Origin: Shigella phage sb1
Strand: one strand, 5' to 3'
Length of the DNA: 64,000 nucleotides
Sequence record: PQ666539
Numbering within the stretch: position 1 is the stretch's first letter; each line of letters begins with the position of its first letter. The notes below the pieces were generated by a model that worked only from the letters and a program-made list of their open reading frames with translations, was not told the origin of the DNA and ran no database searches. This document shows, piece after piece, positions 779 to 1,435 of this stretch. The position numbers and the translations under genes were made by a program.

Positions 779-786
779 TTGATTAT

Positions 787-800
787 GGGGCTTCGGCCCC
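787..800 (+). terminator. GGGGCTTCGGCCCC stem-loop immediately after gene 18 stop
   Basis: perfect GC stem with UUCG loop; no T-run, may act as RNA stability element. Confidence 0.4.
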
Positions 801-817
801 TATTCTCGAGGAAACAA

Positions 818-1435
818 GTGATTATTTCTAAGTTTGTTAAAGTGAAAATTGTACCATCAAATTTTAAACATTATCAATCAAAGGGTTATAAATTAACACC
901 TCTTGGAGCGGTTAAACATGGATTTAGGTATTATGAAATTGATGTTAAAGTTGAAGACATTAAAGGTAGTACCGCGTATGTAAAATGCCGTTGCGATAAA
1001 TGTGGAATTGAATATAACCAACGCATTGGAAGAAACACTGATATTTGTCGTGATTGCCGTCATAAAGATAAAATGCGCAATAATTCATATGGTTCCGCGA
1101 ATAAAGGAAAAACAGTAGAATGTATGCATGGCGTAAATCATCCAAGATGGAACCCAAATAAATCTGAAATGCGTGAATATATTTCATTGGTATATAAAGA
1201 AACTCGTAAGCATAAGAAAATTTGGTCAAAATGGCCAAATGCTGATAAAATAGGAGTGTGCGGTACAAAAGGTGCTTACCAACTTGATCATAAGGTATCT
1301 ATCAAATACGGTTTTGATAATTTAATTCCTGCTGAAATAATTGGCGGTATTAATAATTTAGAAATAATCACTTGGGAATCTAACCGAGAAAAGTCAAAAA
1401 GAAATAGTGTAGATCTTTGGGATTTACTAGAATGA
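818..1435 (+). CDS. free-standing HNH endonuclease-like protein with Cys-rich zinc-finger motifs (start uncertain: GTG 818 with GAGGA SD, or ATG 785)
   Basis: ORF 779..1435; CxxC...CxxC pairs followed by DH...N...N motif typical of HNH/His-Me finger nucleases; lies between genes 18 and 19, which I recall as directly adjacent in T4. Confidence 0.55.
   Translation: MIISKFVKVKIVPSNFKHYQSKGYKLTPLGAVKHGFRYYEIDVKVEDIKGSTAYVKCRCDKCGIEYNQRIGRNTDICRDCRHKDKMRNNSYGSANKGKTVECMHGVNHPRWNPNKSEMREYISLVYKETRKHKKIWSKWPNADKIGVCGTKGAYQLDHKVSIKYGFDNLIPAEIIGGINNLEIITWESNREKSKRNSVDLWDLLE

Follow-up and report, generated by a model that had tools for sequence, protein, structure and literature searches.

The gene located between tail sheath gene 18 and tail tube gene 19 of Shigella phage sb1 probably encodes an active free-standing homing endonuclease, as judged from the predicted protein fold, the active-site motif and comparative genomics. 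It lies in a stretch of 64,000 nucleotides from sequence record PQ666539, here called the window. If this assignment is confirmed, an unrecognised family joins the homing endonucleases of T4-like phages, and it would become clear why silent and occasional non-silent variation is concentrated at one spot of the tail sheath gene. Some 120 Tequatrovirus records and many others could then be re-annotated from 'hypothetical protein'. The following features of the window define the locus.

1-778, plus strand: 3' part of tail sheath gene 18, with TAA stop codon at 776-778; megablast matches annotated tail sheath
779-1435, plus strand: open reading frame (ORF) as first listed, 218 aa from TTG at 779
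787-800, plus strand: GC-rich hairpin with UUCG loop (GGGGC-UUCG-GCCCC; GGGGCTTCGGCCCC), 8 nt past the stop codon of gene 18, seen in the sequence and in the RNA fold
808-812, plus strand: GAGGA, Shine-Dalgarno-like, 5 nt 5' of GTG 818, from direct reading of the sequence
818-1435, plus strand: the gene itself, 205 codons plus TGA, with GTG start; phrog_5104, gp19.1 or hypothetical protein in GenBank
1543-2034, plus strand: tail tube gene 19

The true start of the ORF is likely the GTG at position 818, yielding a product of 205 aa, because the N-termini of the family align at MIISK and because GAGGA is present 5 nt upstream. GTG is also used as start codon for the homologs in the RB3, phiC600P9 and T6 records. 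A first-pass annotation of this DNA had placed an ORF with two zinc-knuckle motifs and further conserved motifs between genes 18 and 19. This description is accurate: the ORF is flanked by both genes and, in GTG numbering, contains CRCDKCG at aa 57-63, CRDCRH at aa 77-82, HGVNHPRWNPN at aa 104-114, QLDHKVSIKYGFDN at aa 155-168 and NNLEI at aa 179-183. It is not a chance frame, since its product matches phrog_5104 with an E value of 3.5e-92 and has homologs down to E 2e-137, the closest among the 37 protein clusters compared. All nine Tequatrovirus copies compared are intact and differ by roughly three nucleotides for each amino acid difference. With 32% GC for the ORF and 33% for the whole insert, as compared to 39-40% for genes 18 and 19, the gene resembles other accessory genes.

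With regard to transcription, the upstream hairpin had been taken as the terminator of gene 18. This view has to be corrected, as the structure at 787-800 occurs in both allelic forms of the gene (A and B, see below), is missing from empty sites and was thus brought by the insert, while the hairpin of T4 corresponds to positions 1442-1461. A strict terminator scan of positions 400-1700 called no terminator, the 787-800 hairpin included. The overall stability of the RNA folded from 770-850 does not exceed that of shuffled sequence (z -0.31), and sequestration of the ribosome-binding site is therefore not claimed. No late-promoter match is present between gene 18 and the ORF, so that expression would need read-through from gene 18.

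Comparison with related phages delimited the insertion and its surroundings:

779-1434, plus strand: inserted segment of 656 bp, from three-way alignment and empty-site spacers
1442-1461, plus strand: hairpin AGGCCTG-TTTCGG-CAGGCCT, common to insert-less phages, the native post-gene-18 structure
1462-1528, plus strand: region upstream of gene 19, containing two TATAAATA late-promoter matches at 1462-1469 and 1521-1528

Genes 18 and 19 had been described as nearly adjacent in T4 and the ORF as inserted relative to the T-even phages. Both statements are borne out by the alignments, in which T4, T2, RB18 and eight other phages share a spacer of only 116 nt and the junction with T4/T2 sequence is sharp. 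The insert replaces 8 nt of the T4/T2 spacer (TACGGTGC), and everything beyond ATTCTAAAGGCC is common to all. These boundaries are identical among filled sites, and the ORF is present or absent at one exact site, the genomes compared being about 97% identical elsewhere. The hairpin and late promoters reported ahead of gene 19 were recovered at the positions listed. The sequence TATAAATA, the T4 late-promoter consensus, and the region around it are the same in empty-site phages and are left unaltered by the insertion.

Two further observations concern the downstream flank. An imperfect inverted repeat, CCCTAGG-TTAAA-CATAGGG (1501-1519), lies between the two late-promoter matches of gene 19 and is kept in all T-even junctions compared. 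When gene 19 was compared with 19 other phages, its haplotypes appeared shuffled regardless of the presence of the ORF, with RB3 being T4-like and the window, ADUt, T6 and PST having another 3' half in common, which points to frequent recombination just downstream of the insert.

The distribution of the ORF was assessed in the GenBank phage collection because a scan of viral contigs using gp19 gave 15 loci only, one of them with the ORF. Occurrence is sporadic, as judged from the 18-19 junction: among about 500 Tequatrovirus-like records matching the junction, 382 have an empty site and about 117 carry the ORF, some 47 of these in the form present in the window (form A) and some 70 in the form typified by T6 (form B). 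Carriers of form A include RB3, RB5-10, HY03, pSs-1, HP3 and sb3, with protein identities of at least 95%. More distant homologs, 33-68% identical, are present in Karamvirus, Klebsiella phages, Salmonella phage S16, Dhakavirus, Gaprivervirus (where the gene is named gp19.1) and Serratia phages as well as in Acinetobacter, Aeromonas and Vibrio phages and in Sinorhizobium phage phiM12. The family comprises more than 240 protein clusters and is without a Pfam or NCBIfam model, its PHROG entry reading 'unknown function'. Each genome carries a single copy (236 places in 235 records), and in every neighbourhood examined, covering more than 20 lineages, the homolog is located directly 3' of the tail sheath gene. 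The same locus is occupied in the examined Sinorhizobium, Aeromonas and Vibrio phages and in three distant metagenomic phages, in one of which a NUMOD3-type N-terminus replaces the zinc ribbon.

Several database entries encountered in this survey deserve mention. GenBank record MG010123.1, 'Staphylococcus phage SAJK-IND' (32 kb), is 97% identical at the DNA level over positions 1-2400 of the window, and PV654520.1, 'Pseudomonas phage vB_PSGBLB0006', contains the T6-type form of the gene as a match at the protein level only; the host labels or the sample purity of both records look doubtful. In Salmonella phage S16 (locus L036, 1201-1821) the annotation covers the C-terminal half alone (gp100.1, 1501-1821), yet tblastn aligns all 205 residues in one piece, and the start was probably miscalled. 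The homologs in Vibrio phage vB_VmeM-32 (locus L021, 2296-3307) and Acinetobacter phage vB_AbaM_3014 align in two pieces, which suggests frameshifted or decaying copies, as would fit a late stage of a homing endonuclease life cycle.

The block of structural genes around this locus harbors other endonuclease-like ORFs in related phages. In the sequence IMGVR_UViG_2706796299_000001 (locus L009, 3526-4104), a 192-aa ORF beginning MYCTYITIYTGNKLPRRYIGSTT lies between the tail tube gene and the expected position of the portal gene. It looks like a GIY-YIG endonuclease of the seg type, in which case this block of structural genes would hold one more free-standing endonuclease. In the related locus L010, no ORF of at least 80 aa starts within the first approximately 100 nt after the tube gene. 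Metagenomic T4-like contigs L049 (1543-2091 and 7903-8430) and L051 (5116-5682) contain further endonuclease-like ORFs around the same genes, among them one between terminase and sheath genes with weak HNH and faint NUMOD3 similarity and one HNH_3 ORF after the portal region. The faint-NUMOD3 ORF of L051 is situated between tube and portal genes and is absent in the otherwise matching L050.

The structure of the product was predicted with AlphaFold2 on the basis of a 31-sequence alignment (pLDDT 86). The model consists of two domains and a low-confidence linker:

818-1072, plus strand: N-terminal domain, aa 1-85, beta strands and a CX2C...CX2C zinc ribbon (pLDDT about 90)
992-994, 1001-1003, 1046-1048 and 1055-1057, plus strand: predicted zinc ligands C59, C62, C77 and C80, respectively
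1073-1132, plus strand: linker, aa 86-105 (pLDDT 58-75), ending in the conserved G-x-N-H-P-R-W-N-P-N-K
1133-1432, plus strand: predicted C-terminal His-Me finger (HNH-like) nuclease domain, aa 106-205
1286-1291, 1355-1357 and 1382-1384, plus strand: D157-H158 at the end of beta-1, N180 at the start of beta-2 and N189 in the helix, respectively

In the predicted C-terminal domain, a beta-hairpin is followed by a helix, and the DH pair, N180 and N189 are placed on the expected elements of a His-Me finger. Residues D157, H158, N180, N189 and K192 do not vary in alignments of 31 and 50 sequences, nor do L181 and W186, and according to the model the layout of residues in this domain is that of a His-Me finger active site. 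The HGVNHPRWNPN sequence, formerly counted as part of an HNH-like core, is instead a conserved linker motif outside the catalytic core.

A profile search for HNH domains, proposed as a check on the first interpretation, came back negative throughout. Pfam did not detect HNH in the window protein at E values up to 10 nor any significant match in its relatives, the best being HNH_4 with E 0.007 (3 of 50 sequences); in the first set of 31 members, HNH_4 (E 0.078) and HNH_5 (E 0.22) each gave a single weak match. NCBIfam yielded nothing, profile comparison with PDB sequences returned zinc-ribbon-like proteins and no nuclease, and a Foldseek search of the PDB with the two-domain model gave no match at E <1. 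Comparison of the C-domain profile with RB3 I-TevIII and MobE by hhalign resulted in a probability below 1%, while Pfam HNH models do match I-TevIII above and MobE just below threshold. As no profile match is significant, the HNH assignment draws on fold and motif. The initial proposal of a free-standing HNH homing endonuclease is upheld with respect to insertion and sporadic occurrence and gains from the linkage to gene 18 described below, but not with respect to an HNH profile and one of the two bracketing hairpins.

The N-terminal domain is presumed, from its modeled fold and from shared modules, to be a DNA-binding module. Sub-threshold matches to DUF4379 (PF14311, a treble clef) were obtained for 9 of 31 members (best E 8e-4) and 12 of 50 (best E 3.6e-5), none of them for the window protein itself when it was searched against Pfam, and among PDB sequences the family profile picked up the DUF4379-type mitoribosomal protein mS66 (E 0.005). 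In addition, the domain matches phrog_12131, annotated as 'homing endonuclease', with E values down to 1.4e-6, and 8 of 50 relatives contain NUMOD3 motifs (E 5e-5) instead of the zinc ribbon. Judged by these similarities, the protein appears to be made of homing-endonuclease-style modules.

A short region near the end of gene 18 turned out to vary together with the presence of the ORF:

694-727, plus strand: 34-nt patch in the 3'-terminal part of gene 18 (85-52 nt from the gene end), codons A-R-S-I-N-Y-I-T-L-N-F-V

When the final 600 nt of gene 18 were aligned for 20 Tequatroviruses, 80 columns were variable and 15 of these fell into the patch (hypergeometric P 5e-6). Between T4 and T6, 14 of 34 positions are different within the patch (41%) vs. 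8 of 566 outside of it (1.4%), and apart from a single replacement of T by Q the changes in the patch are synonymous. Across the 20 Tequatrovirus junctions hardly any variation occurs in the 51 nt separating patch and insert, a stretch that is diverged in other genera. Simple co-conversion from a diverged donor was considered as source of the patch and fits poorly given this near-invariant stretch.

Within the set of 20 genomes, a T4-type patch is present in 7 of 11 phages with an empty site, a substituted type in 4 of 5 phages with form A and another substituted type in all four with form B. The same tendency is evident at the population level, for which haplotype counts are estimates based on identity bands and on a sample taken at even spacing. 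A T4-type patch accompanies form A in 2 of 47 records (Ec_YwIITB1 and sb3), with sb2 being intermediate, and the patch is substituted in all form-B records sampled. Taken together, about 114 of 117 carriers have a substituted patch as opposed to about 36% of empty-site records (about 64% T4-type). The corresponding odds ratio for carriage and patch type of about 68 is an estimate that ignores shared ancestry and includes empty-site counts projected from a sample of 45 rows. Most carriers in other genera have ATA-AAT-TAT (Ile-Asn-Tyr), the sole fully synonymous alternative for these codons, and non-carriers ATY-AAC-TAC. In three lineages form-B carriers even exhibit amino acid changes in the conserved INYITLNF sequence of gp18 (T to Q twice, N to S once).

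A silent patch linked to carriage is expected at or beside the target of a homing endonuclease, and on comparative grounds the patch is likely a candidate recognition/cleavage or immunity site. The window is itself an exception to the linkage in that form A stands beside an unsubstituted, T4-type patch, meaning that the enzyme can cut its own genome or that the patch is not its target. Furthermore, the patch is identical in Karamvirus with (CkP1) and without the gene (L009), and it is substituted in about a third of the phages with an empty site as well. The substituted patch creates TATAAATT, a 7/8 match to the late promoter, and the linkage might accordingly reflect expression instead of immunity.

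Forms A and B are distinguished by a defined part of the gene:

840-1211, plus strand: segment separating form A (window) from form B (T6 type), with flanks about 93% identical

At the DNA level the two forms are about 93% identical up to codon 7 and again from about codon 132 onwards, and they are unrelated in between. The A/B pairing was found in four lineages, i.e., Tequatrovirus and three others. Within a lineage, A and B are 25-30% identical in the N-terminal and 90-99% in the C-terminal part; the same form compared between lineages shows 44-59% and 69-78% identity, respectively. The two forms are ancient, differing in the N-terminal two-thirds and having the nuclease core in common. The predicted DNA-binding two-thirds would therefore be an old cassette that can be exchanged on a nuclease core specific to each lineage, a pattern that argues against simple vertical descent with loss.

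The following course of events is proposed for a homing endonuclease at this site. In the apparent lack of a promoter of its own, the gene would be transcribed by read-through of gene 18 late transcripts past the hairpin, and read-through combined with translation from GTG would keep expression low. Going by fold and shared modules, the N-terminal treble-clef zinc ribbon and the linker would bind DNA, and the C-terminal beta-beta-alpha-metal site (D157/H158/N180/N189) would nick or cut the DNA of a co-infecting phage without the gene. The position of the patch suggests that the likeliest cut site lies some 50-85 bp ahead of the insertion point, in the highly conserved 3'-terminal part of gene 18. 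Recombinational repair from the carrier would then copy the ORF along with adjacent markers, in analogy to SegF, SegG and MobE. Were this confirmed, two cassettes on one core with matched haplotypes would make it possible to study the joint evolution of target specificity and self-immunity in a compact natural system.

A family restricted to a single locus weighs against homing, since it could be an old accessory gene that was lost repeatedly. Such a resident accessory nuclease of the sheath-tube junction, kept or lost by lineage, might act on host or competing-phage DNA in the sense of exclusion or competitor defense without promoting its own copying. The identical locus in every member examined, even in distant phages and often abutting the sheath stop codon, would be accounted for in this way, as would the conservation of the predicted catalytic residues, the intactness of all compared copies and the T4-type gene 18 patch retained by the window phage. 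We nevertheless regard this explanation as rather unlikely: it does not readily accommodate two forms with only 25% identity in the N-terminal part inside one genus and between flanks more than 95% identical, nor the closer relationship of each form to the same form in other genera, and it leaves the sharp insertion boundary with its 8-nt replacement, the tight linkage of the gene to a local silent patch in gene 18 and the DNA-binding modules of homing-endonuclease type without a ready explanation. As an extension of the homing endonuclease interpretation, we tentatively consider that the family constitutes a single-locus homing lineage tracking the conserved C-terminal coding sequence of the sheath gene across the T4 superfamily. 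Form A, form B and the NUMOD3 variants would be ancient, exchangeable DNA-binding specificity cassettes kept across genera, each with a protective recoding of gene 18 that would in places have forced replacements (T to Q, N to S) into a structural motif that is elsewhere invariant. If true, a selfish nuclease and an essential virion gene would be locked in an arms race.

Two other functions can be envisaged for a protein of this architecture. Given that no HNH profile match is significant, that the zinc-ribbon half resembles mS66/DUF4379 and that some GenBank records carry the label 'head morphogenesis protein', the product could be a DNA- or RNA-binding zinc-ribbon protein with a structural or inactive HNH-like unit, e.g., a regulator of genes 18/19 or a tail-assembly factor. 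This is improbable in view of the invariance of D, H, N, N and K in more than 50 diverse sequences exactly at His-Me positions and of the dispensability of the gene in T4, T2 and about three quarters of the Tequatroviruses, and the morphogenesis label is a bare annotation. A terminase-associated HNH packaging factor similar to HK97 gp74 or GVE2 HNH is scarcely credible, even though small HNH proteins of phage type (4h9d and 5h0o) give the best structural matches and the gene for the terminase large subunit is found immediately upstream of gene 18. The ORF is sporadic within a single genus, being absent from about three quarters of the Tequatroviruses, it never adjoins the terminase gene and always follows the sheath gene, and T4-type phages perform headful packaging with the nuclease of gp17 itself.

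A homing endonuclease therefore remains our preferred interpretation, and the literature contains no description, as far as found, of gp19.1 or of a homing endonuclease between genes 18 and 19. A 2010 census of homing endonuclease genes in T4-related genomes has no entry under 'other HNH' for the carriers RB3 and Acj61 and only three seg-like genes for Acj61 (PMC2993671, Table 5); the Acj61 homolog is annotated as hypothetical protein only. A few recent GenBank records do use the term 'homing endonuclease', and the designations 'type II restriction endonuclease', 'head morphogenesis protein' and 'holin' found in others are probably wrong.

The nuclease domain finds its best structural matches in Gme HNH (PDB 4h9d) and GVE2 HNH (PDB 5h0o), both stand-alone domains of about 100 aa with 10-14% sequence identity to the ORF product, which differs from them by its fusion to a zinc ribbon and by about 20 additional, helical residues that separate H158 from N180. 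Sub-threshold similarity also exists to the HNH domain of Cas9 type (HNH_4, PF13395), the biological context of which is wholly different. Hef of phage U5 and F-CphI of cyanophage S-PM2 are likewise products of free-standing endonuclease genes in T4-like phages and initially stood outside the classical families. F-CphI features the Endo VII motif CX2-4C...DHDH...CX2C...N (PMC6083498). Membership of the ORF product in the Endo VII/F-CphI group was considered and rejected upon inspection, as DHDH and Cys pairs flanking the DH are lacking, the four Cys ligands being located about 80 residues upstream of the DH in a separate domain.

With phrog_12131, the ORF product has the N-terminal strand and zinc-ribbon domain in common, whereas the C-terminal part differs. 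The example, an unannotated, frameshifted gene of Geobacillus virus E3 (locus L040, 2001-3081; NC_029073.1, about 53.99-55.07 kb), extends over three reading frames, has an ORF-like zinc ribbon followed by DUF7487 and a weakly DUF559/Vsr-like region (E 0.058), and looks like a decayed homing endonuclease.

MobA-E, I-TevIII and I-HmuI have their nuclease unit at the N-terminus, unlike the ORF product with its C-terminal unit, and the ORF family further departs from them in its confinement to one locus and in the lack of a detectable sequence relationship to RB3 I-TevIII and MobE. On the other hand, the D-H...N...N arrangement resembles that of I-HmuI. Like the free-standing and intron-encoded HNH homing endonucleases of T-even and SPO1-type phages, the ORF product combines a beta-beta-alpha-metal unit, here predicted, with modular DNA-binding parts such as a zinc finger or NUMOD motifs. 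As with MobA-E, I-TevIII and I-HmuI, a small gene occurs sporadically between or within conserved phage genes, and the target is to be expected in a conserved gene near the insertion.
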